Source of the DNA: Armatimonadota bacterium
Lineage (GTDB): Bacteria; Armatimonadota; SYMT01
Assembly: GCA_041690135.1 (NCBI GenBank)
Contig: JAWLHY010000006.1
Location: forward strand, 32,001 to 96,000
Direction: 5' to 3'
DNA length: 64,000 nt
The notes below the pieces were generated by a model. It was given only the letters and a program-made list of their open reading frames with translations, had not been told where the DNA came from and did no database searches. Positions 4,751 through 17,390 of the stretch are shown here, piece after piece. How positions within the stretch are numbered: the stretch's first letter is position 1; each line of letters opens with the position of its first letter. A program made the position numbers and the translations under genes.

Positions 4751-5402
4751 CCTCGATTGGTCGGCAACCGGGGAATGGTCCCTGCGTTCTGTCCAATGGC
4801 GGTGCTCGCCTCCGGTTCCGCTGCTGCCGTTGCGCACTCCCGGATCGGCGTTACTACCTGGGAAGCGCCTCATGTTCATCGGCGTGTACGGACAGTGCCT
4901 GGGATGAGCCCGGTATCAAAGGCGGCAGGGATAGCCTCGCGTGTGGTGAGGGCGATACGTCCATGCCATGCGCAAAGCCCTGGGTGATACAGAGGTGACA
5001 GGCACCCCCTAATTTCTGTGTATGGAAGGCAAGCGAGCCGTTGACTGCACCGATACAGGTAAGTAGCCGCTATCAGGAATTTTTCGAGAATCAGGTCTCC
5101 CGCACCGGACATGCACCTGGGCAACGAGTAAGGGTCGCTTTGCTCTATGCCAGCGCCGAATTTCGGAACCGAGAAGGGTCGGGGATGCTGCACCGGCTCT
5201 TGGGTGCGGTGTGCCGGAACCGAAGATCCTGTTTGAGGTTCCAATAATGGGGTGGGCGTGCGCCCGAAGTTCCCTTACGCCTTGCAAACGCGGACTACGG
5301 CGCGGCTGATTGGAAGGCTGGGCACAGGTTATGGACGCTGCCCCAGCGGCCTGTTAAGATCAGACACCCTCCACCCCTTGTAGGCAGTTGCGCAAATCAC
5401 GT

Positions 5403-8400
5403 ATGTCGGATGAGGATCTGGACCCCGTAATGACTTGTGACCGTGCGAGCGTCCTCCTGGTCGATGATCGTCCCGAGAACCTCCTGACGCTGGAGGCCGC
5501 GCTCTCCGACCTGGATGTAGACCTGGTTCGCGCCACTTCCGGTCCCGAGGCGCTGAAGCAGGTCCTGGACCGGCAATTTGCGGTGGTCCTGCTCGACGTG
5601 CAAATGCCCGAGATGGACGGCTTCGAGACGGCGCGACTCATCCGGCAGCGGGAGCGGAGCCGCGACACCCCTATCATCTTCCTGACCGCCGACGAGCGTG
5701 CCCCCACCCAGGTGTTTGACGTCTACGCGGCGGGAGCCGTGGACTTTCTCGTCAAGCCCGTGGTACCGCAAATCCTCAAGGCCAAGGTCTCCACCTTCGT
5801 AGCACTCCACCGGCAGGCGCTGGCCCTCCAGGCTGAAGTGCGGCAGCGCGTACAGGCCGAGCAGGCGCTTCGTGCGGCCGCTCAACAGCGGGAACAAGCC
5901 GAGGCGGAGGTCCGACGCCTGAACCAGGAACTGGAAGCCCGGGTCACCCGCCGCACAGCGGAACTCCAGCGGGTGCGGGACCGCCTGCATTTCCTGGCGG
6001 AAGCCAGCGCCCTCCTCGGGTCCTCTCTGGACTACGAAGTGACCCTCCAGAACGTGGCCCGGTTGGCGGTATCCTGCTGCGCAGATTTCTGCGTAATCGA
6101 CGTGCTCGAACACGACGGACTCCTTCGCCGGGTGGCAGTGGCCCACGCAGACCCCGTACAGGAGGAGCAGTTCGGGCCACTGCTGCGGCAGCACACCCCC
6201 AACCGTGATCGGGGCATGATTGCAGAAGCGCTGCGGGAAGGCCGGTCCTTCCTGGTGCCGGAAGTGACGGAAGCCTGGATGGAGGCCGTAGCGACCAGTG
6301 AAGCCCACCGGGGACTCATGCAGGACCTCGGGGTTCGCTCGGTGATGTTGGTCCCCCTCCAGGCTCGTGGCCGCACCCTGGGCCTGCTCGTCTTCGGATC
6401 TACCGAAGAGGGGCACCGCTATGGCACAGAAGATCTGGCCGTCGCGGAGGCCCTGGCCCACCGGGCGGGCTTGGCGCTCGACAATGCCCGGCTGTACCAG
6501 GAGGCGCGGACCAGTGGGGAACGGCTGCTCCGCTTGACGGAAGCCTCGGCCACGCTCCTGCCGGGCGGGGAGGGGCGATCAATCGTGTCCGCCGTGCTCG
6601 ACCTGGCACAGCGTCTGATCCCGGCCGATGCCTTGGCCCTCTGGAGGCAAGAAGAGCCGCACGGCTGGACGATGGTGGCGCAGGCCAACCTTTCGGCAGG
6701 CTGCCCGGCCGCACTTTCACCCAGCGCAGATCGGCTGTCTGCGGAAGCGGTTTGCATCGAAGATGTGGAAGCCTGGTCCGGCCCGGAAGAGCGGCGCGAA
6801 GCCTACCGCGCTGAAGGTATCCGCTCCCTGCTCCATACTCCGCTCCGCCTGCACGGGGAACTTACCGGCACCCTCACTTTTTACTACCGGAGACCGTACC
6901 CCTTCGAGGAAGGGGAGGTGCGCGTGGCGACCGCCCTCGCCAACCTGGCGGCTTCCGCGATTACTACCGGCGAACTGTACACCGAACAGCGCCGGATGCG
7001 GAACGCGGCGGAGGCCGCGCAGGAGCAACTGCGGTTTCTGGCGGAAGCCAGCACGGTGCTCGCCTCTTCTCTCGACTACCGGACCACTCTGGAGCACGTA
7101 GCCCAACTCGCGGTGCAAAGCCTGGCCGACTGGTGCACCGTGCACCTCGTGGAAGAGGACGGGAATGTGCGGCAGGTCGCCCTAGCCCACGTGGACCCCG
7201 AGAAGGTGAAGTGGGGCCGAGCGCTCGGAGAGCTTTACCCTTACGATCCCGACCAGCCCCGAGGGGTGGCGCACGTATTGCGATCCGGGCAGACCGAAAT
7301 CTACCCGGAGATCACCGACGACTTGCTAGTGCAGACGGCACGAGACCCGGAGCACCTGGAACTACTGCGGAAGGTCGGCTTTACCTCCTGTGTGATCGCG
7401 CCCCTCCGAATCAGGGATCAGGTGCTGGGAGCCATCAGCTTCATCGCTTCCGAATCCGGCAAGCGCTACGATGCCGCCGGAGTGGCGCTCGCGGAAGACC
7501 TGGCGCGGCGGGCGGCCACGGCCATTGACCATGCCCGCCTCTTCCGCCAGGCGGAGGAGGCACTCCGCCAGCGCGAGGAGACGCTGGCACTCTTGGACAC
7601 CCTGTTCGCTTCGGCTCCGGTGGCCCTGGCCTTCCTCGACACAGACCTCCGCTATGTGCGGGTCAATGAAGCCCTCGCGGGCATGCATGGGAAGCGCCCG
7701 GAGGAGATCGTGGGCCGCACCCTTCACGAGATGGTGCCCACCATGGCTGCGATGTTGGAGCCCCTCTACCGGCGCGTCATGGAAAGCGGAGCGCCGCTGC
7801 TGAACCTGGAGGTGAGCGGAGAAACCTCCGCCGCGCCCGGCGAGCAATGCCACTGGCTGGTGAACTATTACCCCGTGCGCAATCCGCAGGGGCAGGTGCT
7901 CGGCGTAGGGGCTGCGGCGGTGGAAATGACGGACCGCATCCGGGTGAGGCAAGCCCTGCAAGCCAGTGAGGCGCGGCTGGGCGGCATCATCGGCTCGGCG
8001 ATGGACGCCATCATTACCGTGGACGCAAGGCATCGGATTACGCTCTTCAACGCGGCGGCGGAGCGAATGTTCCGGTGTTCGGCCGCCTCTGCCCTGGGGG
8101 AGCCGGTGGAACGGTTCATTCCCGAGCGGTTCCGCCGGATGCACGCCGGACACGTGATGGCATTCGAGGAAAAGGGGGAGACGAGCCGCTCCCTCCGGTC
8201 GCTGGGCACGCTCACGGCACTCCGGGCGGATGGCGAGGAGTTCCCTATCGAGGCCGCCATTTCGCAGGTGGAAGTCGGTGGGGAGCGGTTCTTCACGGTT
8301 ATTCTGCGGGACGTGACGGACCGCCTGGCGTTGGAAGCGGAGCTTCGCGAGCGCGTGAAGGACCTCGCGCTGGCCGCACAGCGCAAGGATGAGTTCCTGG

Positions 8401-9482
8401 CCATGCTCGCGCACGAACTGCGGAACCCGCTGGGAGCCATCAGCAACGCCCTGCATGTGATCCAACAGCCCCACGCTCCGGAGGCGGCCCGCCAACGCGC
8501 CCTCCAGGTGTTCCAACGGCAGATCGGGCACCAGAGCCGCATGGTGGACGACCTGCTGGACGTGTCACGGCTCACGCGGGGCCTGGTGGAGATTAGGTCG
8601 GAGCGACTGGATCTGGTCTCCCTCGTCCGGGACACGGCCGAGGACTATCGGGAGAGCCTGGACCGGGAAGGACTCGGCTTCTCCCTGGACCTGCCGGTAC
8701 GGACGCTGTGGGTCGAAGGTGACCCGACCCGTCTCTCCCAGGTGCTGGGCAATCTGATGAGTAACGCCATGAAATTCACCCAGACGGGCGGGCACGTGGC
8801 CGTCTCGGTGGAGGAGGACCGAGAAGCGGATCGGGTAACCGTGCGGGTGCGAGACACCGGAGAGGGGCTTACGGCCGACTTCCTGCCCTACGCTTTCGCT
8901 GCGTTCGCCCAGGCCGACCGCAGTCTTGCCCGCAGCCGGGGGGGGTTGGGGTTGGGCCTGGCTATCGTGAAGGGCCTGATTGAACTCCACGGAGGTGAGG
9001 TTGGCGTTTCCAGCGCGGGGCCTGGCTGCGGGGCGGAGTTCTGGTTTTCCCTGCCGCTGGTGAGCCGGGGTATCGACCTTCCCCCCGCCCGCCTCACAGC
9101 CTCACCCGGAGGCGGGCTCCGCATTCTGGTCGTGGAGGACAATCGGGATGCGGCGGAAACTCTCCGGGACCTGCTGGAGATGTATGGGTATGCAGTGGAG
9201 ATCGCGCTTACAGGGCACGCCGGTCTGCAACTTGCCCGAGAGTGGCAGCCGGACGTGGTGCTGTGCGATATCGGTCTCCCCGGAATGGACGGGCATGAGG
9301 TCGCCAGAAGCCTGCGGCAGGCCGGAAACCCACCGCTCCGGCGGCTCATCGCCGTGACCGGTTACGGGGGCGCGGAAGACCAGGTGCGTTCACGCGAGGC
9401 CGGGTTCGACCACCACCTGGTCAAGCCGCTGAACCCCGAAGAGTTGAAGCAGGTGCTCGATAACGTTGCCGTGGATGGCTGA
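5403..9482 (+). CDS. hybrid sensor histidine kinase REC-GAF-GAF-GAF-PAS-PAS-HisKA-HATPase-REC
   Basis: N-terminal LLDVQMPEMDG, three GAF-like repeats, two PAS, LAHELRNPL H-box, GGLGLGL G-box, C-terminal LCDIGLPGMDG. Confidence 0.95.
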   Translation: MSDEDLDPVMTCDRASVLLVDDRPENLLTLEAALSDLDVDLVRATSGPEALKQVLDRQFAVVLLDVQMPEMDGFETARLIRQRERSRDTPIIFLTADERAPTQVFDVYAAGAVDFLVKPVVPQILKAKVSTFVALHRQALALQAEVRQRVQAEQALRAAAQQREQAEAEVRRLNQELEARVTRRTAELQRVRDRLHFLAEASALLGSSLDYEVTLQNVARLAVSCCADFCVIDVLEHDGLLRRVAVAHADPVQEEQFGPLLRQHTPNRDRGMIAEALREGRSFLVPEVTEAWMEAVATSEAHRGLMQDLGVRSVMLVPLQARGRTLGLLVFGSTEEGHRYGTEDLAVAEALAHRAGLALDNARLYQEARTSGERLLRLTEASATLLPGGEGRSIVSAVLDLAQRLIPADALALWRQEEPHGWTMVAQANLSAGCPAALSPSADRLSAEAVCIEDVEAWSGPEERREAYRAEGIRSLLHTPLRLHGELTGTLTFYYRRPYPFEEGEVRVATALANLAASAITTGELYTEQRRMRNAAEAAQEQLRFLAEASTVLASSLDYRTTLEHVAQLAVQSLADWCTVHLVEEDGNVRQVALAHVDPEKVKWGRALGELYPYDPDQPRGVAHVLRSGQTEIYPEITDDLLVQTARDPEHLELLRKVGFTSCVIAPLRIRDQVLGAISFIASESGKRYDAAGVALAEDLARRAATAIDHARLFRQAEEALRQREETLALLDTLFASAPVALAFLDTDLRYVRVNEALAGMHGKRPEEIVGRTLHEMVPTMAAMLEPLYRRVMESGAPLLNLEVSGETSAAPGEQCHWLVNYYPVRNPQGQVLGVGAAAVEMTDRIRVRQALQASEARLGGIIGSAMDAIITVDARHRITLFNAAAERMFRCSAASALGEPVERFIPERFRRMHAGHVMAFEEKGETSRSLRSLGTLTALRADGEEFPIEAAISQVEVGGERFFTVILRDVTDRLALEAELRERVKDLALAAQRKDEFLAMLAHELRNPLGAISNALHVIQQPHAPEAARQRALQVFQRQIGHQSRMVDDLLDVSRLTRGLVEIRSERLDLVSLVRDTAEDYRESLDREGLGFSLDLPVRTLWVEGDPTRLSQVLGNLMSNAMKFTQTGGHVAVSVEEDREADRVTVRVRDTGEGLTADFLPYAFAAFAQADRSLARSRGGLGLGLAIVKGLIELHGGEVGVSSAGPGCGAEFWFSLPLVSRGIDLPPARLTASPGGGLRILVVEDNRDAAETLRDLLEMYGYAVEIALTGHAGLQLAREWQPDVVLCDIGLPGMDGHEVARSLRQAGNPPLRRLIAVTGYGGAEDQVRSREAGFDHHLVKPLNPEELKQVLDNVAVDG

Positions 9483-10099: not shown

Positions 10100-13015
10100 C
10101 TAGTCTTCCGTCCCACCCCCGAGCAATCGCTTCAATTCCTGGGGGTTGATCGGCTTGACCAGATGGTGGTCCACCCCGGCTTCCCGCGAGCGCAGGCGAT
10201 CCTCGTCCTGTCCGTATCCGGTGAGCGCCACCACCATTGCCCCCACTGCCTCTGGAGTCTGCCGCAGTCGCCGCGCTACCTCATAGCCGTCCATTCCCGG
10301 CAGACCGATATCCAGCAGCACCACCTCCGGCCGAAACTCGGGTACGACGACAAGCGCGGTCGGACCATCGTGGACGCAGCGGGCGGTATGGCCCCACAAT
10401 TCAAGCAAGTCCACCAGGGTCTGCGCCGCGTCCGCGTCGTCTTCGATCACGAGAACCCGCTTACCTGCTCCCGTCCTATCCCCGTTGGACTCAACCGCTC
10501 CCGGCGTAACAGTAGGCTCTTCCGTGCAGGCGGGCAAGGATACGATGAACTCACTGCCGTGTCCCGGACCTGCGCTGGTGGCGGAAACCGAGCCGCCATG
10601 CAACTCTACCAGGCCCTTGACCAGGGCCAGCCCCAGCCCCAGACCGCCCTCGGAGCGATCCAGCGTGTGGTCGGCTTGAATAAACACTTCAAAGAGGCGA
10701 GGGAGGATTACCGGGTCGATCCCGATACCGGTATCCCGGACCCGGATCTGAACCTGTCCCTCCAGCCGCTCTAGCGCCAAGATTATCTGTCCGCCGGGTT
10801 CCGTGTATTTGGCCGCGTTGTGCAGCAGGTTTCCCAGCACCTGTTCCAGGCGGGTGGCATCCGCCTCGACCCAGATGGTTCCGGAGGGCAAGACCGCCGA
10901 GAGCTGGTGTCGGCGAGCCTCCACCTGCGGGCGGCTGGTTTCGACCACGTGGGAGACGAGCGCCACAAGATCGAGCGGGGTCTTCTGCAAGTGGATCTTG
11001 CCCCGCGTGATCCGCGATACATCGAGGAGATCGTCCACCAGACGCGCCAGGTGTTGCACCTGCCGCTCCATGATCTCCTGGTTCCTTCGCTGTGCTGGAT
11101 CAGTGACCTTTTGCAGGCGCATTAACTCCAGAGCATAGCGGAGGGAAGCCAGCGGATTGCGTAACTCGTGCGCGAGCATGGCCAGGAACTGATCTTTGGC
11201 CTGATCCGCTTCCGCAAGCTGTGCCGCTCGCTGGCGCAACTCCCCTTCGAGTTGCTTTTGCTCCGTGATATCGCGGACGATCCCGGTAAAGAAGCGGCGG
11301 CCTCCCAACTGAAACTCGCTGACCGCCAGGTCCATCGGGAATGTGGAGCCGGTTTTTCGGCGGCCCACCACTTCCCTGCCAAGTCCCATGACTCGTGCCT
11401 GCCCGGAGTGCAGGTAGTTCATGAGGTACGCGTCGTGCTGGCTATGGTACGGCTCCGGCATCAATATCTTGACGTTGCGACCCACCACCTCCTCGGCCCG
11501 GAAGCCGAAGATCCGTTCCGCCGCCGGGTTGAAGGTCTCCACGATGCCATGCGCGTCGATGGTGACGATGGCGTCGAGCACGTGGTCTACGACCGACCGC
11601 ATCCGCGCTTCACTATCGCGCAGGGCCTGCTCGGCTTCGTAGCGCTGGGTAATGTCGCGGATAATTACCGTGAAGAATCGCTGCCCACCCGCGACCACCT
11701 GCGAGATCGTCGCTTCGATGGGGAACTCCTCGCCATCCGCCCGGACTGCGGTCAGGGTGCCGAGCGTGCGCATGGAGCGGCTGGTGTCCCCGGTTTCCCC
11801 AAAGCCCCGCACGTATCCGTCGTGAGCCGCCCGGAAGCGTTCGGGAATAAACCGGTCGAGCGGTTGCCCGATGGCAGCAGACGCGGGACAGCGGAACATT
11901 TGCTCCGCAGCGGCATTGAAGACCCGTATCCGCTGATCTTCCCCGATGCTGATGATGGCGTCCATCGCCGACCCGATGATTCCGGCGAGCCGCGCTTCGC
12001 CTTCCCGTAGCGCCGCTTCCGTCCGCTTCCGTTCGGCGAGTTCTTCTTGCATAGCCTGGTACAGCCGGGTGTACTCGTCGCCCAGGGCAATCCGGTCCGC
12101 AACCACCTGGAGGAGCCCCTCGTCGTCCGGGGTGAAGGGTCGGGGCGAAAAGCTCCCGACGTGCAGAAACCCGGTTATCTTCCCTTGGACGACCAGCGGG
12201 ACCCCGAACTGCGACCGTACGTCCTTTTCTTGCAGCAACGGCTTGAGGATTTCCGAGTAGTCAAAGTTCCGGGTGCAGTCGGGGTGCCGGGCCGAGGCCA
12301 GGTAGTCCGCAAAACGCTTGTCGAGGGGGAAACGCTCCCCGCCTTCAACCTCGCCTTGCAGTCCGGTGGCGGCCCGCACTACCAGCGCCTCGCCTTCCAC
12401 GAGAAGGACCATGGCCAGATCCGCCAGGAGGAGGCTGCGAACGCGGTACAGTAGCTCGGGCAGTAGCTGGTCCAGGGAAAGATACGAGAGGGTCGCTTCG
12501 CTGACGCTCCGCAGCCGCTGTAGTCGCGCTGAAGCGTTCTCGGCTTGCACCTGCGCTGCTTCGGCGACCAGGAGGTGACGCGCATCAGCCTCCGCTCTCC
12601 GGCGCTCGGTGAAATCGCGGGTGATCTTGGCAAATCCGACGAACGTTCCCGCCTCGTAAAGCGCGGTAACAACCACGTTGGCCCAAAAGCGGGACCCGTC
12701 CTTGCGGACCCGCCAGCCTTCTTCCTCGTACCGCCCTGCGCGGCGGGCGATCTCCAGGACCTGCCCGGGGTGGTGGCGCTGCACATCCTCGGGGAGATAG
12801 AACCGGGAGAAGTGCTCGCCGATGATCTCCTCCGCCGCGTAACCTTTGAGTCGTTCCGCCCCGGCATTCCAACTGACGACGCGTCCCACGGGGTCGAGCA
12901 GGAAGATGGCGTAGTCTTGCACGCTCTGGACCAGAAGGCGCAGCGGATCTACACTGACGGGCGAATGGCCCAAGCCATCCCCGCCCCCGCTCGCCTGCTC
13001 CGGTTCTGTTGTCAT
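10100..13015 (-). CDS. hybrid sensor histidine kinase PAS-GAF-PAS-PAS(FixL-like heme)-HisKA-HATPase-REC
   Basis: LAHELRNPL H-box, G-boxes and LLDIGLPGMDG receiver. The last PAS has FixL-like LMPEPYHSQHDAYL. Confidence 0.95.
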   Translation of the reverse strand: MTTEPEQASGGGDGLGHSPVSVDPLRLLVQSVQDYAIFLLDPVGRVVSWNAGAERLKGYAAEEIIGEHFSRFYLPEDVQRHHPGQVLEIARRAGRYEEEGWRVRKDGSRFWANVVVTALYEAGTFVGFAKITRDFTERRRAEADARHLLVAEAAQVQAENASARLQRLRSVSEATLSYLSLDQLLPELLYRVRSLLLADLAMVLLVEGEALVVRAATGLQGEVEGGERFPLDKRFADYLASARHPDCTRNFDYSEILKPLLQEKDVRSQFGVPLVVQGKITGFLHVGSFSPRPFTPDDEGLLQVVADRIALGDEYTRLYQAMQEELAERKRTEAALREGEARLAGIIGSAMDAIISIGEDQRIRVFNAAAEQMFRCPASAAIGQPLDRFIPERFRAAHDGYVRGFGETGDTSRSMRTLGTLTAVRADGEEFPIEATISQVVAGGQRFFTVIIRDITQRYEAEQALRDSEARMRSVVDHVLDAIVTIDAHGIVETFNPAAERIFGFRAEEVVGRNVKILMPEPYHSQHDAYLMNYLHSGQARVMGLGREVVGRRKTGSTFPMDLAVSEFQLGGRRFFTGIVRDITEQKQLEGELRQRAAQLAEADQAKDQFLAMLAHELRNPLASLRYALELMRLQKVTDPAQRRNQEIMERQVQHLARLVDDLLDVSRITRGKIHLQKTPLDLVALVSHVVETSRPQVEARRHQLSAVLPSGTIWVEADATRLEQVLGNLLHNAAKYTEPGGQIILALERLEGQVQIRVRDTGIGIDPVILPRLFEVFIQADHTLDRSEGGLGLGLALVKGLVELHGGSVSATSAGPGHGSEFIVSLPACTEEPTVTPGAVESNGDRTGAGKRVLVIEDDADAAQTLVDLLELWGHTARCVHDGPTALVVVPEFRPEVVLLDIGLPGMDGYEVARRLRQTPEAVGAMVVALTGYGQDEDRLRSREAGVDHHLVKPINPQELKRLLGGGTED

Positions 13016-13564
13016 AGAGTTCTTCCCACCTGCTGGTACGCCGCAGCAGTTTTGAGAGCCTGCTGTCGATGCTGGGGGGAGCCATTCTAACGCCCTTGGG
13101 GTGGTTGGACGTGAGTCAGGGGACCCGATACGGCACAGCGGTTGTGCCCTTGACGCCCGTCACCTCCGGGTTGGATACCGGATATCGGGGTGGCCAGCCG
13201 TTGGCGGCAGCGCGAGGAGTTTGCCGTCCGCAGCTACAGCAAAGCGCATGGGTAACATTCTGCAGGGAACTGGGAAATGCCTGCATCACGGTCAATTTGG
13301 TGATACGGACCCGCCCTGGGCTCACTGCAAATGTTGGCGGTTATGGGGAGCGGCTCCAGGGGGAAGGGTGCAACGCGGTGCAACTCGGTTACTTGTATAG
13401 CGGAATCGACCGGGCACATAGGTGACAGGCAAGCAAAGTCAAGGCCCTCATGGCGCAATGCCGAGGACACAGAACCCTGGATGGTTCGTGCTCGTTTTCC
13501 CACCCTGGATACTGGCGGTGCAGGAAGGCGTCTAGCGCCTGCATTTGCGGACCCCAGAAACGCG

Positions 13565-13604
13565 CAACGAACTCCAGAGAGGACCACGCCCCTGGAGTTC
13601 GTTG
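13565..13604. repeat. 13-bp perfect inverted repeat (hairpin)
   Basis: CAACGAACTCCAG (13565-13577) and CTGGAGTTCGTTG (13592-13604); no T-tract. Confidence 0.6.
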
Positions 13605-13834
13605 GAGGTGACTTAAGCGTCTCGGGCTACCGAAACTTCCCCGTGCTTCGGCAGCCCGAGCACCACCGCTACCTCTACCTGCCCGTGGCGGCGATCCGAC
13701 AAACTCCATTTTGGTTGGGCACCGTGACTTGGGCCGGATCGAGCGGGGTTATCACGCCAGGAACCGGAATAGGTTTACTCGGTAGCCCGGACTAACCTAT
13801 CGTAGTTGGCCAACTTGTATCCTGGAAGCACAGG

Positions 13835-14113
13835 GTGCCTGGCCATGTTTACCCCTTTCCCTATTTGCTCGTCAGCGAGGTGACCGCCGAGGTGATGGAG
13901 ATCTTCAACACCGCCCATGTGTTGGTCAGGCAGGGCAGTTGCGCAGCGGGTTACCGCCATCTGCATGAGGCTCTCGCACGGTGTGCTGCGGGCCTTGAGA
14001 CCGAACCACCGCCCGATGCGGAGTGCTTCCGGTATTCCGCCTACTGCACAGCACTGGCACGCTGCTGCGCTCGTTATCTTCCCGAGGGGCCGCCCACTGA
14101 AGACCGGAAGTGA
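13835..14113 (+). CDS. small three-helix protein, unrecognised paralogue family (copy E, divergent)
   Basis: A-x6-G-x4-GY-x2-L-x3-L-x-R pattern and C-terminal AYCTALARCCARY match the family; start uncertain. Confidence 0.6.
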   Translation: MPGHVYPFPYLLVSEVTAEVMEIFNTAHVLVRQGSCAAGYRHLHEALARCAAGLETEPPPDAECFRYSAYCTALARCCARYLPEGPPTEDRK

Positions 14114-14137
14114 TGAGATCGCGCCGAGAGGTAGATA

Positions 14138-14359
14138 GTGGTTTCCCAAACGGAGATGCTTGAGTTCATCCTGGTCTATTCCGAGGCTGAAGCCCAGGCC
14201 AAGCGGGACAACCGAGCTTGCGGCTATCTGCTGTTGTGGGAGGGGCTGCGCCGAGCGGAGACGTCATGGGTCATGCACCGTGAGGCGCTGGTGGATTTGT
14301 GGCAGCGGGGCATCCAACGGTTTCAGAGTCGGTACCCCACCGAGGGGCACCCGAAGTGA
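14138..14359 (+). CDS. small three-helix protein, unrecognised paralogue family (copy D)
   Basis: GYLLLWEGLRRAE vs GYALLIRGLIRAE in copy A; GAGG RBS before GTG. Confidence 0.7.
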   Translation: MVSQTEMLEFILVYSEAEAQAKRDNRACGYLLLWEGLRRAETSWVMHREALVDLWQRGIQRFQSRYPTEGHPK

Positions 14360-14583
14360 GCCGCCGGAAACCTGCGTAGCGCCGTAGCGCGACCACGCCC
14401 CAGATGCACGCGGTCTCATCCGGGGCGTGGTCGAGGCGAGCCCTCGCAGTCGTAGAACGGAGCGCCTATGCAGGCAGAGCGAGCATCGCCTTGCACTCCC
14501 TCCCTGCCCGTTACAGCGGCCCCTCAAACGTATCTTATTCTCCTGCGCCTACCTCCGAGAGCCAGGCGGCCGGTGCCGACGCG

Positions 14584-14850
14584 TTAGGCACCCGTGGTAG
14601 GCACCCCGCAACGGGCACGGATGGCCGGTTGGTCGGCCAGGCGGCCGTACTCGGCCAGGGCCAACGTGTAGGCGCGACAGAGGTCGGTTGCCCACTCCTC
14701 GCCAGCCGCCGCACACCGACTGGCTCGTGCCAAACCGGCCAATAGACAGCGAGCGCCCGCTTCCGTATCCCCCCAACCGTGGAGGCGGCAGGCTTCGATT
14801 ACCGCTCGGCAGAGCAGCCGGTATTCGGTTAGGGGTAGCGCCGTGTCCAT
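14584..14850 (-). CDS. small three-helix protein, unrecognised paralogue family (copy C)
   Basis: LPLTEYRLL...GDTEAGARCLLAGLARA...WATDL..AY..ALAEY aligns ungapped to copies A and B. Confidence 0.72.
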   Translation of the reverse strand: MDTALPLTEYRLLCRAVIEACRLHGWGDTEAGARCLLAGLARASRCAAAGEEWATDLCRAYTLALAEYGRLADQPAIRARCGVPTTGA

Positions 14851-15510
14851 CAGCGGGGTCTTACCTGCGCGGATGGATTCTTAAGCAGGCGATCCGCCCA
14901 GCCCGCTACTGGGTTGGCGTGGATCTCATTCCGCACCGGGAAAGCCCCGACACGGCGGAGTAGAAGAAATAGGACCGCCGCGAACCTGGGAGCGAGGGTG
15001 CCAACATCGAGCGCTCCCGCGACTCGGAGAGCCGCCCCGGAATGACGTGGGGTTCCGGGGCGGCGAGGCTGTGGTTTAGAAGGACACTCGGGGTTAGGAG
15101 GGACCGTTATAGGGGACGGACCTCTGTCCCATAAGGTGCCCTGGTGTGGGAGTGCTTCAAACCACTTCTTGCTTGCGCCGCACTGTTGTCGTCGTTGGGT
15201 GACGGCTGCTTTGGGAGGCGCTCCGCGCTGCCGGGTTGGGCGCTGCCTGAAGGATTTCCTCAACGGGTGGAGACGGGTAGGTGCTCCTACCCGTCGCGGT
15301 TACTGCGGGCCAAAAGGGCAATGCGACGAACGCCAAGGAAGTGAAAGTTCCGCCCTTCCCATCAAGGGAATATCAAGGCCGGACCGGCTTCCCGAGGCGA
15401 GGGTCTTGGGAAAAGAACAGCCAAGACGCCGCTCCCGCCGCTGCCTGTACACCGAGGCCAGGTATCGTCCCCCGCATAATGCCGGTGAACGGCACTACCT
15501 CCCGTAGACG

Positions 15511-16548
15511 TCAGCGCAAGTTCATCCGGTCGCCGGGTGAGGCCCGCCGATGTGCCGCTTCCGCGTCGGCCTGGGTGATGAGCACGTACCGGCGCAGGAT
15601 CTCCAGGCTCTCGTGCCCCATCAGGACCTGCAACTCGTAAACGTTCCCTCCGGCCCGCAAGAACTCAATCGCGAAGGTGTGGCGGAACGTGTGGGGCGAG
15701 CAGCGCACGCCCTGGACCCCGGCCACCTGTCCGAGCCTGCGGATCACCTGTGTGAATCCCGAACGGGTCATGGCCTCCCCGGAACGAGTGCCACCTTCCG
15801 CCAGGAAGAGCGGCTCCTCGGGCTTTGCGCCCCGGCGCTGGACCTCCAGGTATCGCCGGACCGCCCGCCGCGCATCCCGGCCCAGATAGACCCGACGCCG
15901 CTTACCGCCCTTTCCGGTGACCGTGATCTCTCCGGTGCCACTCTCCACGTCCGCAATCCGCAAGGAGCCCACCTCGCTGATGCGGAGACCGCTGTCCAGG
16001 AGCACCCACAGCAAGGCCCGATTGCGTTCCGGCTGCTGGCTGCGCCGGGCGGCATCCAGGAGTGCCTGTATCTGCTCCGGGGTGAACGGCTGGATCTGAT
16101 CCTTCGGGGTCCGGGGCGGCTTGAGGTTCTGGAGTGGGGAGGCCGGAAGTAGCTCCTCACGGACGCAGAATTCCCCGAAGGCGTGCAGGTTGCGGTAGTC
16201 GTGGAGAAGCGTGTAGGGACGCGCAGGCCGCTTGGCGGTGGGCTTGCCGCAGCCGAACCGTCCTTCCGGGTGAGGCTCCCGCAGGTAGGCCAGGAATCGG
16301 CGGATGCGGTCTTTTGTGAGGGTGTGCAGGCTGGCGGGGACCTGTTCCTCGTGCTCTAGCCACCAAGCCACGCGGCGTAGCCCTTCGCGGCGATCCTGAA
16401 GGGTGCGCTCGGTCCAGCCCTGCGCCCGACCGTCGGCCAACCACAGCTCCACGGCCCGCATGAGGGCCAGGGATGATTCGGAGCGAGGGGAGGAGGTGGG
16501 GGGAGACTGGTGCTCTTTACTCCCCCGAGACTGGTGCTCTATTCTCAC
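15511..16548 (-). CDS. tyrosine recombinase/integrase
   Basis: SAM-like core-binding region, GLRISE, HTFRH, MGH, RRY; AGGAGA RBS before GTG; adjacent to the tRNA 3' end. Confidence 0.95.
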   Translation of the reverse strand: MRIEHQSRGSKEHQSPPTSSPRSESSLALMRAVELWLADGRAQGWTERTLQDRREGLRRVAWWLEHEEQVPASLHTLTKDRIRRFLAYLREPHPEGRFGCGKPTAKRPARPYTLLHDYRNLHAFGEFCVREELLPASPLQNLKPPRTPKDQIQPFTPEQIQALLDAARRSQQPERNRALLWVLLDSGLRISEVGSLRIADVESGTGEITVTGKGGKRRRVYLGRDARRAVRRYLEVQRRGAKPEEPLFLAEGGTRSGEAMTRSGFTQVIRRLGQVAGVQGVRCSPHTFRHTFAIEFLRAGGNVYELQVLMGHESLEILRRYVLITQADAEAAHRRASPGDRMNLR

Positions 16549-16605
16549 GTTTGCGTCTCCTGAACGAAGGGTCCAGCAAGACGCGTAACCGGAGACTGGT
16601 GCTCT
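16503..16605 (-). repeat. three direct 14-bp repeats matching the tRNA-Arg D-stem/anticodon stem
   Basis: GAGACTGGTGCTCT (+ strand) at 16503-16516, 16527-16540 and 16592-16605; AGACTGGTGCTCT also at 16684-16696 inside the tRNA. Confidence 0.9.
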
Positions 16606-16643
16606 ACTTACGCACGAAATGAGCGAGTGGGAAGGAAGGGAAA

Positions 16644-16717
16644 CGCTCGCGGAGGGATTCGAACCCCCGACACCCAGTTCCGAAGACTGGTGCTCTAATC
16701 CACTGAGCTACGCGAGC
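16644..16717 (-). tRNA. tRNA-Arg(TCG)
   Basis: Full cloverleaf: GCTCGCG acceptor, GCTC/GAGC D-stem with A20, CCAGT-CTTCGGA-ACTGG anticodon arm, GGGGG-TTCGAAT-CCCTC T-arm; CCA not encoded. Confidence 0.95.
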
Positions 16718-16844
16718 CTATGAAGGGTCCCAGCGACAACCCGCTTCCCATCTCTGATGGAGTAGTGGAAGACAGGCGGAACCGCCGGGAGCCCGATTAT
16801 AGCAGGTCCGGGATCGCAGCGGAAGACCGTTGAATCGCCGCACT

Positions 16845-17390
16845 TCAGCTTTGCCAGATCCACGCGCCGATCAGCTGTCCGGAGCCATCGATGGCGATGT
16901 CCAGGTAATCGCCGTCCAGCCGCATGCCGCTCCAGTCTCCCAGGTAGTACCGGAGGATCTCTCGCGTCCTCTCGTAACCGCGACCTTCGACCAGCGGCCG
17001 TCCCCGGTACTGCTCCCGGCCATCGGGCGGTCCGAGCAGTCGGACGACCGCCTCCCGCTTCATCCCCTTCTTCAGGTGGCGGCGGACCAGACTTCCCGCC
17101 ATCCGCCCGCGGAGGCTGTCCCGATCTGTCCTGGCCTCCAGCCACCGCTGCTGCTGGAAGGGCGCGCGGTGGAATGGGCTCAGCCGGAGTTGGAGCCACC
17201 CGGCGCCGACCGCACCGAGGGCAAAAACTCCGACGATGATCGCTCCGACCAGCAGGCTCGATCGTTCCGGGAGTGCGCGACGCTTGACGGCACCGAAGAT
17301 CCACGTACCGCCAAATCCGAGTATGGAGATCCCCAGCCCGGCGAGCATCAACAGATACAGAAGCGCCGCAAGCAACTGATCCGGGGTCAT
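16845..17390 (-). CDS. membrane protein with C-terminal SmpA/BamE-like domain
   Basis: Two N-terminal TM helices; LKKGMKREAVVRLLGPPD motif. Confidence 0.7.
   Translation of the reverse strand: MTPDQLLAALLYLLMLAGLGISILGFGGTWIFGAVKRRALPERSSLLVGAIIVGVFALGAVGAGWLQLRLSPFHRAPFQQQRWLEARTDRDSLRGRMAGSLVRRHLKKGMKREAVVRLLGPPDGREQYRGRPLVEGRGYERTREILRYYLGDWSGMRLDGDYLDIAIDGSGQLIGAWIWQS

Follow-up and report, generated by a model that had tools for sequence, protein, structure and literature searches.

The subject of this work is an integrase gene (int) and the adjoining tRNA-Arg(TCG) gene in a 64,000-nucleotide stretch of the genome of an Armatimonadota bacterium (assembly GCA_041690135.1, contig JAWLHY010000006.1, positions 32,001 to 96,000 of the forward strand), hereafter called the window. 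In the spacer between the two genes and inside the first codons of int we found direct copies of the part of the tRNA gene that leads into the anticodon loop. Comparison with related loci suggests, with a probability that we put at roughly 0.6, that these copies are core-type accessory 'arm' sites of attP and attL and that they would be bound by extra protomers of the integrase.

The 13-mer AGAGCACCAGTCT has four exact occurrences within 194 bp of the minus strand, one in the tRNA gene and three towards the integrase (Table 1). It corresponds to tRNA positions 22–34, comprising the 3' strand of the D-stem, nucleotide 26, the 5' strand of the anticodon stem and the first two bases of the loop. 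In the whole assembly (9,098,857 bp, 25 contigs) the exact 13-mer was found five times and the reversed control pattern was absent; the fifth occurrence lies in a truncated tRNA-Arg copy on contig C23. With up to two mismatches the window gave five matches, while 100 shuffled versions gave a mean of 1.18 and only one of them reached five. The tRNA gene of the window is the sole tRNA-Arg(TCG) gene in the genome-wide ARAGORN list. The three copies, designated here P'1, P'2 and P'3, are each 13/13 identical to the core half-site, which places them by motif among accessory core-type systems; P'2 and P'3 form a 24-bp tandem and occupy codons 4–7 and 12–15 of int. The preliminary description of this DNA, which reported exact repeats at the tRNA, in the spacer and twice in the open reading frame (ORF), encoding EHQS twice, was accurate in both coordinates and wording.

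Relatives of the integrase are numerous. A database search revealed 1046 of them at E ≤ 1e-20, mostly unnamed or labelled XerC/XerD, and of the 401 genomes sampled from its phylum 64 had matches at E ≤ 1e-50, frequently more than one, with up to four matches per genome elsewhere. The homologues are about 35–56% identical to the window integrase. In total 75 loci (35 at first and then 40 more) were oriented and compared; they are cited below by their L numbers. A tRNA gene stands just upstream of int in 62 of the 75 loci, on the same strand in 60 and divergently in two, and 24 tRNA species are represented. Among the other 13 loci, which lack a full tRNA, there are some with truncated tRNAs in tandem arrays, such as L012 and L013. 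By tRNA adjacency and by the partial tRNA repeats that bound its elements, the family belongs to the tRNA-gene integrases, one class of which, reportedly recognized by Williams in 2002, crosses over in the anticodon loop. Other collections added little: the phage and plasmid collections contained no close relative of the integrase (best 31% and 29.5%), a profile search of genome contigs with a generic Xer motif returned only relatives of 24–36% identity and was not used, and a search of metagenome contigs with a single protein gave 11 loci, none of them useful.

The copies follow the tRNA of their own element in a substantial part of the family. The probe was the tRNA segment whose end lies just 5' of the anticodon; we searched for it in the spacer of the 62 loci on the int-sense strand, limiting non-self pairings to clearly different tRNAs. 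The exact 8-mer was found in 17 of 62 self pairings versus 11 of 2594 non-self pairings, the 10-mer with at most one mismatch in 22 of 62 versus 19 of 2134, and the 12-mer with at most two mismatches in 25 of 62 versus 18 of 1774; two or more copies of the 12-mer were present in 12 of 62 self pairings and in none of the 1774 others. No antisense self match to the 10-mer was found in the first 30 loci. An anchored test on codons 2–10 of 27 loci, which scored the five anticodon-stem bases and two loop bases, gave 7/7 in 11 loci and 6/7 in six, versus none at 7/7 and 13 at 6/7 among 452 non-self pairings. None of 5000 label permutations reached the observed total, although this figure and the self/non-self counts overstate significance because related loci are not independent. 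Despite this caveat, the matching, as judged from sequence, is spread over many different tRNAs. For example, a 49% identical paralogue, located beside tRNA-Ser(CGA) of this genome, carries GGAGCCTGTCT three times; these copies correspond to the same part of its own tRNA, precede and enter the first codons, and keep the same orientation relative to int though this tRNA gene is divergent. At tRNA-Gly(TCC), a relative with 56% identity carries (T)AGAGTCACT(A/G)C four times. The preliminary description had named repeats matched to their own tRNA in homologues at other tRNAs as the decisive test, with slippage scars as the outcome if they were missing; such repeats are clearly present (17/62 versus 11/2594 for the 8-mer), which removes that outcome.

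The spacing of the copies is also conserved. In a survey of offsets (own-tRNA 12-mer, at most three mismatches, 63 matches), 14 matches lay at +89 to +91 from the core half-site and 24 at +151 to +157, together 38 of 63; minor groups were revealed at +142 to +145, +176 to +180 and +201 to +204, and further copies step by 24 bp. The offsets are +91, +156, +180 and +204 in the tRNA-Gly relative and +91, +156 and +180 in the window. Across the family the second copy usually starts 10 nt inside the ORF. The start codon lies 82–115 nt past the tRNA end in 26 of 30 loci, and in 23 of 27 the Shine–Dalgarno (SD) sequence is paired in an equivalent leader hairpin, whose stem sequences vary. In contrast to the spacing, the reading frame of the copies varies by locus, so that they encode EHQS, RAT, RVT or TAL; because the frame differs between loci, the constraint appears to act on the nucleic acid and not on the peptide, and the EHQS-EHQS peptide of the window would be a by-product of a constraint at the DNA level.

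Copies were also revealed on the other side of the core, far from int. The tRNA-Ser element of the same genome is 49 kb long, and its far end is a duplicate of tRNA positions 1–43 followed by two GGAGCCTGTCGCGGGCG copies in the int sense. In seven further elements we examined 40–60 kb downstream of int and found a partial tRNA repeat 10.6–52.6 kb away in five; in four of these five (L100, L113, L114, L124) a copy lies about 78–80 bp upstream of the core at the far end, and that of L113 is exact (12/12). No far end was found within 60 kb for L112 and L121, and the far end of L102 has no clear P-arm copy. The only other genomic copies of tRNA-Arg(TCG) are both truncated and lie on the 40.5-kb contig C23. 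One of them comprises tRNA positions 17–74 with 100% identity and has two AGCACCAGTTT copies 80 and 103 bp upstream; the other, which is older, comprises positions 25–70.

Five viral contigs contain the whole arrangement in contiguous form, in the order copy (P1), partial tRNA, copy (P'1), hairpin, start codon, copy (P'2) and int, the first copy preceding that in the ORF by 222–235 nt. Two tandem elements could likewise produce a junction of this kind between them; either way, the copy beside the partial tRNA belongs to an element of this integrase family. The blocks of identity between full and partial tRNAs start at positions 4–31 (3'-type) and end at position 43 (5'-type, tRNA-Ser), and because of these edges the crossover can be placed in the anticodon loop or the 3' stem. 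In three of the five contiguous sites (L201, L204, L258) the stem found in the arm copies is the one able to pair with the 3' strand of the anticodon stem in attP, that is, the host-type half-site, and the left core half of attP itself is degenerate. These three sites suggest that the arms are strong sites which would help to load a weak core.

The integrase has the organization of a simple enzyme. The only Pfam match was PF00589 (Phage_integrase; residues 155–322, E = 1.8e-34), and no arm-binding Pfam family was found in the 345-amino-acid protein down to E = 0.1. An alignment of 50 sequences shows no variation at the catalytic residues R189, K213, H286, R289, H312 and Y321. The AlphaFold model based on it has a mean predicted local distance difference test score (pLDDT) of 89.1, with values below 50 for residues 1–23 and the first helix beginning at residue 29; residues 1–23, the region encoded by the repeats, are predicted to be disordered. 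The nearest solved sequences are XerD (1a0p, E = 4.7e-23), an archaeal XerC-like enzyme and XerA, and the top fold matches were XerA (5hxy), Tn1549 Int (82-397), IntI4, XerH, the core domains of lambda Int and Cre, with the Brujita integrase (5vfz) also among the matches. Simple tyrosine recombinases, as described in part of PMC8138268, have core-binding and catalytic domains only. The window integrase is a complete tyrosine recombinase of this class, and the absence of an obvious arm-binding domain that the preliminary description had pointed out is borne out by Pfam and by the model alike. It is not a heterobivalent enzyme of the lambda type, since the domain is absent and the arm copies are exact core half-sites. 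Nor does it belong to the Xer enzymes of dimer resolution, which are encoded by a single chromosomal copy acting at dif, as the family is multi-copy, tRNA-adjacent and located at island ends.

Translation probably begins at the GTG at 16548, because the homologues share this start position; in most of them the start codon lies 4–8 nt past the SD-bearing hairpin at the same place. The ATG at 16459–16461 (MRAVELW), where the similarity of homologues begins, was considered as the true start with untranslated repeats and was rejected, since most homologues have their start at the GTG position. At E ≤ 1e-100 the genome contains three family copies, namely the window integrase, a 95% identical C-terminal fragment and the 49% identical paralogue. 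It should be mentioned that the window also holds, at 2335–2825 of the minus strand, a 491-bp copy (97% identical) of the 3' part of the integrase gene (15511–16001). Its homology starts exactly at the stop codon and ends within the catalytic domain, and it may be what remains of a second element belonging to the integrase family.

Table 1. Features of the tRNA-Arg–int region, in window positions.
Feature	Position	Strand	Basis or remark
Integrase gene, 345-amino-acid XerD-like simple tyrosine recombinase	15511-16548	minus	starts GTG, reads MRIEHQSRGSKEHQS
Exact AGAGCACCAGTCT	16504-16516, 16528-16540, 16593-16605; 16684-16696 (within tRNA)	minus	
Putative arm copy P'3, AGAGCACCAGTCT	16504-16516	minus	+180 from core, 24 bp past P'2, encodes second EHQS
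Putative arm copy P'2, TAGAGCACCAGTCT	16528-16541	minus	+156 from core, 9 nt inside ORF, encodes first EHQS
GTG start codon of int	16546-16548	minus	8 nt past SD, 95 nt past tRNA 3' end
GC-rich hairpin, 3' arm contains SD AGGAG (plus-strand 16557-16561)	16553-16584	minus	RNA fold
Putative arm copy P'1, TAGAGCACCAGTCTCCGG	16589-16606	minus	17/18 identical to tRNA 16680-16697; +91 bp from core half-site
Motif ATTTCGTGCGTAA, possible second accessory site	16608-16620	minus	immediately upstream of P'1
tRNA-Arg(TCG), putative integration target, attL core of integrated element	16644-16717	minus	ARAGORN; Rfam tRNA 68.5 bits
Anticodon loop CTTCGGA, inferred 7-bp crossover (overlap) region	16679-16685	minus	identity-block edges
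Core 'B' half-site TAGAGCACCAGTCT in tRNA, the sequence that is copied	16684-16697	minus	

A contrasting arrangement at the same tRNA was found on contig C23, where a 15.4-kb island (C23:22776–38218; L005, L010) lies between the two truncated tRNA-Arg(TCG) copies. The island integrase is 445 amino acids long and comprises Arm-DNA-bind_4 (E = 1.1e-4, 22.2 bits versus a curated cut-off of 22.3), SAM_3 and catalytic domains. The palindrome GTTTGCAAAC, which is unrelated to the tRNA, has four copies in the genome, one pair at each island end. The island looks like a classical arm-site system. Thus, two solutions appear to be used at one tRNA: the integrase that apparently has an arm-binding domain is accompanied by arm sites unrelated to the tRNA, while the enzyme devoid of this domain is accompanied by copies of the half-site.

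The following scheme would account for these features. The integrase would cross over in the anticodon loop of tRNA-Arg(UCG), and P'1, P'2 and P'3, each a core-type half-site of about 13 bp, would be accessory sites of the integrative element. Because the enzyme has no separate arm-binding domain, extra protomers would use their core-binding and catalytic domains for binding the copies just as for reading the tRNA core. Together with the core subunits, the protomers on the phased sites at +91, +156 and +180 on the int side and at about -80 and -103 on the other arm would form a higher-order complex, which would tell attP and attL from the bare tRNA and would set the efficiency and direction of the reaction, a task that lambda-type integrases perform with an arm-binding domain and TnpI and IntI1 with accessory direct repeats. 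Of the three hypotheses put forward in the preliminary description, the one of accessory core-type sites lying over the start codon is favoured by the own-tRNA matching, the fixed offsets and the copies on the other arm far from int. This hypothesis also included autorepression. Because P'1 and P'2/P'3 bracket the start codon and the hairpin that hides the ribosome-binding site (RBS), integrase occupancy should limit the expression of int, including read-through from the tRNA promoter. By analogy with other integrases such autoregulation is conceivable, but we regard this part of the scheme as tentative and slightly more apt to be wrong than right.

A number of observations, besides the kinship of the compared loci, weigh against the binding of the copies by extra integrase protomers. 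The co-variation is incomplete: in 37 of 62 loci no own-tRNA 12-mer was found at up to two mismatches, loci at tRNA-Glu (0/4), tRNA-Lys (0/1) and tRNA-Pro-TGG (0/2) never reach this threshold, and some tRNA-Ala and tRNA-Pro loci fail as well. In L013 three TAGAGCAACTAC copies mismatch the anticodon stem of the adjoining tRNA-Arg(CCT) fragment, and the copies of L017 resemble the opposite half-site, B'. Most relatives on viral contigs with 30–36% identity lack the layout of copies. One of the viral contigs (L208, integrase 35% identical) has instead RGRCCACACA-type repeats around a partial tRNA, in both orientations and unlike the anticodon arm; in this more distant subfamily a different portion of the tRNA, or unrelated arm sites, may be in use. 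The contig that carries the window's own element does not include the far end, and the candidate far end on C23 could not be linked to this element, as no ORF is open at the joining ends (the end of C23 and the start of C6). Finally, a scan of positions 16350–16900 revealed no sigma-70-like promoter and no terminator between the tRNA and int.

The same copies could instead be bound by another protein, such as a directionality factor or repressor of the element or a host factor. A second conserved inverted motif speaks for the presence of other factors: TTTCGTGCGTAA and TTACGCACGAAA, an inverted pair of 12 nt, stand on either side of the tRNA core and outside the half-site copies, TTTCGTGCGTAA at 16608–16620 of the window and TTACGCACGAAA at about 38240 of C23 (L005, about 1535–1550) in the putative P arm, and comparable pairs are present in L113 and L114. 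This pair may be a site for a second factor, so other factors probably act here. Furthermore, a small Xre-like helix-turn-helix (HTH) ORF (59–130 amino acids) was found up to 1.5 kb downstream of int in five of 35 loci (L103, L106, L111, L113, L116) and could be the repressor or directionality factor in some of the elements. However, no partner gene is common to the family, and the tRNA-Ser and tRNA-Arg elements of this genome have only int in common. The copies track the half-site that the integrase itself must read, and another protein has no cause to follow each tRNA. At about 13 bp the copies are as long as a tyrosine-recombinase half-site, which also counts against another binder, and we consider such a binder unlikely. 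A role at the RNA level, be it translation control with the RBS hairpin, pairing with the co-transcribed tRNA or a guide sequence, would agree with the hairpin that pairs the SD with varied stems, with the location of P'2 and P'3 within the transcribed ORF and with the absence of a detectable terminator between tRNA and int. Yet the copies are identical and not complementary to the tRNA, so that pairing is limited to the 5-nt stem and 4-nt D-stem strands; the layout persists at the divergent tRNA/int loci L016 and L115; and in the integrated state the far-arm copies lie 10–50 kb from int, outside any int leader. The variable frame of the copies points the same way, and in an Rfam search of the window leader only the tRNA scored above the gathering threshold, the leader itself matching no family. 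An RNA role is thus quite improbable, and pairing with the co-transcribed tRNA, which the preliminary description had offered as one of its hypotheses, is disfavoured by the identity of the copies, the divergent loci and the far-arm copies. It is harder still to credit that the target address is carried by the repeats and not by the protein alone, a possibility for which the three contiguous sites with host-type arm copies and a degenerate left core half leave some room. The arm copies would then stand as a reference for the host attB half-site and, in the form of DNA or of leader RNA, act as a template or licence for recognition of the tRNA. If that were true, rewriting the repeats would retarget a simple tyrosine integrase, whose specificity would be set by nucleic acid in the spirit of guide-directed recombinases.

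Two further explanations attribute the copies to recombination or to its traces. The copies could be secondary crossover sites that remodel the 5' end of the integrase or delete the element, as the preliminary description had proposed for the 5' end. The copy nearest the tRNA does reach into the loop (17/18). A single case is also suggestive: about 33.8 kb downstream of the L100 int (L126–L128), contig G040:C1 of another genome has a tandem array at tRNA-Gly(GCC). In the last unit of this array nothing is left but the 3' part of the tRNA and the int leader as far as the ORF copy; the break comes right past CTACCTT+GCC, as if recombination had hit that arm copy. Against this, each copy is a lone half-site that lacks an inverted partner at loop distance, neither the ORF nor any of the three copies in the window is disrupted, and the positions in the family are fixed and not scattered; the remodelling hypothesis therefore found no support in the window, and crossover at the copies is very improbable. 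The last explanation holds that the copies are functionless by-products of slippage, of repeated integration and excision, or of gene conversion from the tRNA. The 24-bp tandem of P'2 and P'3 and the frequent tandem arrays of elements at one tRNA would fit such an origin. The same offsets are, however, kept in integrases only about 35–45% identical and at 24 tRNA species. Only the B half of the tRNA is copied and no other part; many copies of the tRNA-Val group have CAGC or CACC in place of the GAGC of the tRNA and follow a consensus of their own; and in L109, L114 and L124 the copies are kept while their flanks diverge. The comparative data appear to have largely refuted a functionless scar already, and we give it next to no credence. 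Binding by additional integrase protomers is accordingly the reading we prefer.

Other features of the window do not touch the integrase directly. The approximately 2.5 kb downstream of it (13016–15510) contain no ORF longer than about 150 amino acids on the plus or the minus strand; the genome has a G+C content of about 64%, at which long ORFs commonly arise by chance. Long imperfect inverted repeats were found at 9240–9459 and 10120–10339 (103 nt at 74% and 81 nt at 79%). They coincide with the 3' ends of two convergent, very large ORFs for sensor histidine kinases (5388–9482, plus strand; 10100–13015, minus strand) and probably reflect paralogous C-terminal domains.

The arrangement can be compared with several known systems. 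In phage lambda the arm-type sites of attP are named P1, P2 and P'1–P'3. As in lambda-type attP, the accessory sites of the window family lie on both arms of a core in the tRNA or host site, the tandem P' sites are located by int, and the sites would be needed on the element side only; unlike there, the integrase has no arm-binding domain and the arm sites are copies of the core half-site and not a distinct sequence. The Brujita integrase is said to be 'arm-less, directionless and promiscuous', a phrase known to us from the title of a paper alone. According to part of PMC8138268, a simple integrase of the Brujita type carries out phage integration and excision without an arm-binding domain; the window family differs from it in its elaborate phased arms. 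XerC, XerD and XerA provide the closest solved sequences and folds, and members of the family are annotated as XerC/XerD. In contrast to these enzymes, the family is multi-copy and tRNA-adjacent and stands at the ends of 10–50-kb insertions bounded by partial tRNA repeats, so it is not a dif-site resolvase.

The closest parallels in mechanism are found among accessory repeats that share the core motif. In the TnpI system of Tn4430, the accessory DR1 and DR2 motifs have a 9-bp sequence in common with the core motifs and are bound by additional regulatory subunits, which set the synapse's architecture and the reaction's direction (PMC2847244, as far as the relevant part of the paper goes). TnpI is likewise a simple tyrosine recombinase with accessory direct repeats sharing the core motif, although for the window copies binding by the recombinase is inferred only. 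It differs in resolving cointegrates at an internal site of the transposon, with motifs that are one-sided and have no relation to a host gene, whereas in the window family the sites lie on both arms of a tRNA core and follow the target of each element. For integrons, a part of PMC8946536 describes DR1 and DR2 of attI1 as supplementary IntI1-binding sites which favour one reaction and are proposed to be topological filters. Direct repeats beside a simple site are common to both systems, and IntI4 is a fold match of the window integrase; but IntI1 has no tRNA target, attC is folded single-stranded DNA, and the attI1 repeats do not lie over the integrase start codon. For IntS of KplE1, overlap of attL with the int promoter and negative autoregulation have been reported, and this was proposed, in a part of PMC2951348, to be general for tRNA-associated integrases. 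In the window, too, attL overlaps the int control region. IntS, however, is of the arm-binding class and its overlap is with the promoter, while the window sites bracket the RBS hairpin and the first codons, and their regulatory effect is a conjecture.

Thus, the ingredients are known, namely tRNA-targeting integrases, arm sites, accessory core-type repeats and autoregulation at attL, and their combination is new in the literature searched. It consists of a widespread family of simple integrases with phased arms on both sides that copy the half-site of the target tRNA, at least two of the copies lying within the first codons. In full-text literature we found no description of tRNA-copy arm sites for a simple integrase, a search in which subscription journals were thinly covered and supplements lay outside.

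The gain of an arm-binding domain has been claimed, in a part of PMC8138268, to be essential for the integrases of mobile elements. The window family suggests another route, by which a simple enzyme appears to gain phased arms by copying its own core half-site. If the binding of integrase to the copies is confirmed, this would explain how an arm-less enzyme tells attP from attB and controls direction. In that case the repeats in the int leader would also name the target tRNA, giving a rule readable from sequence for the annotation of islands and prophages, and the family would provide compact integrases with predictable and perhaps redesignable attP, attB and regulatory sites. It would, moreover, be a clear case in which a constraint on a DNA site in the first codons of a gene leads to a disordered N-terminus encoded by repeats.

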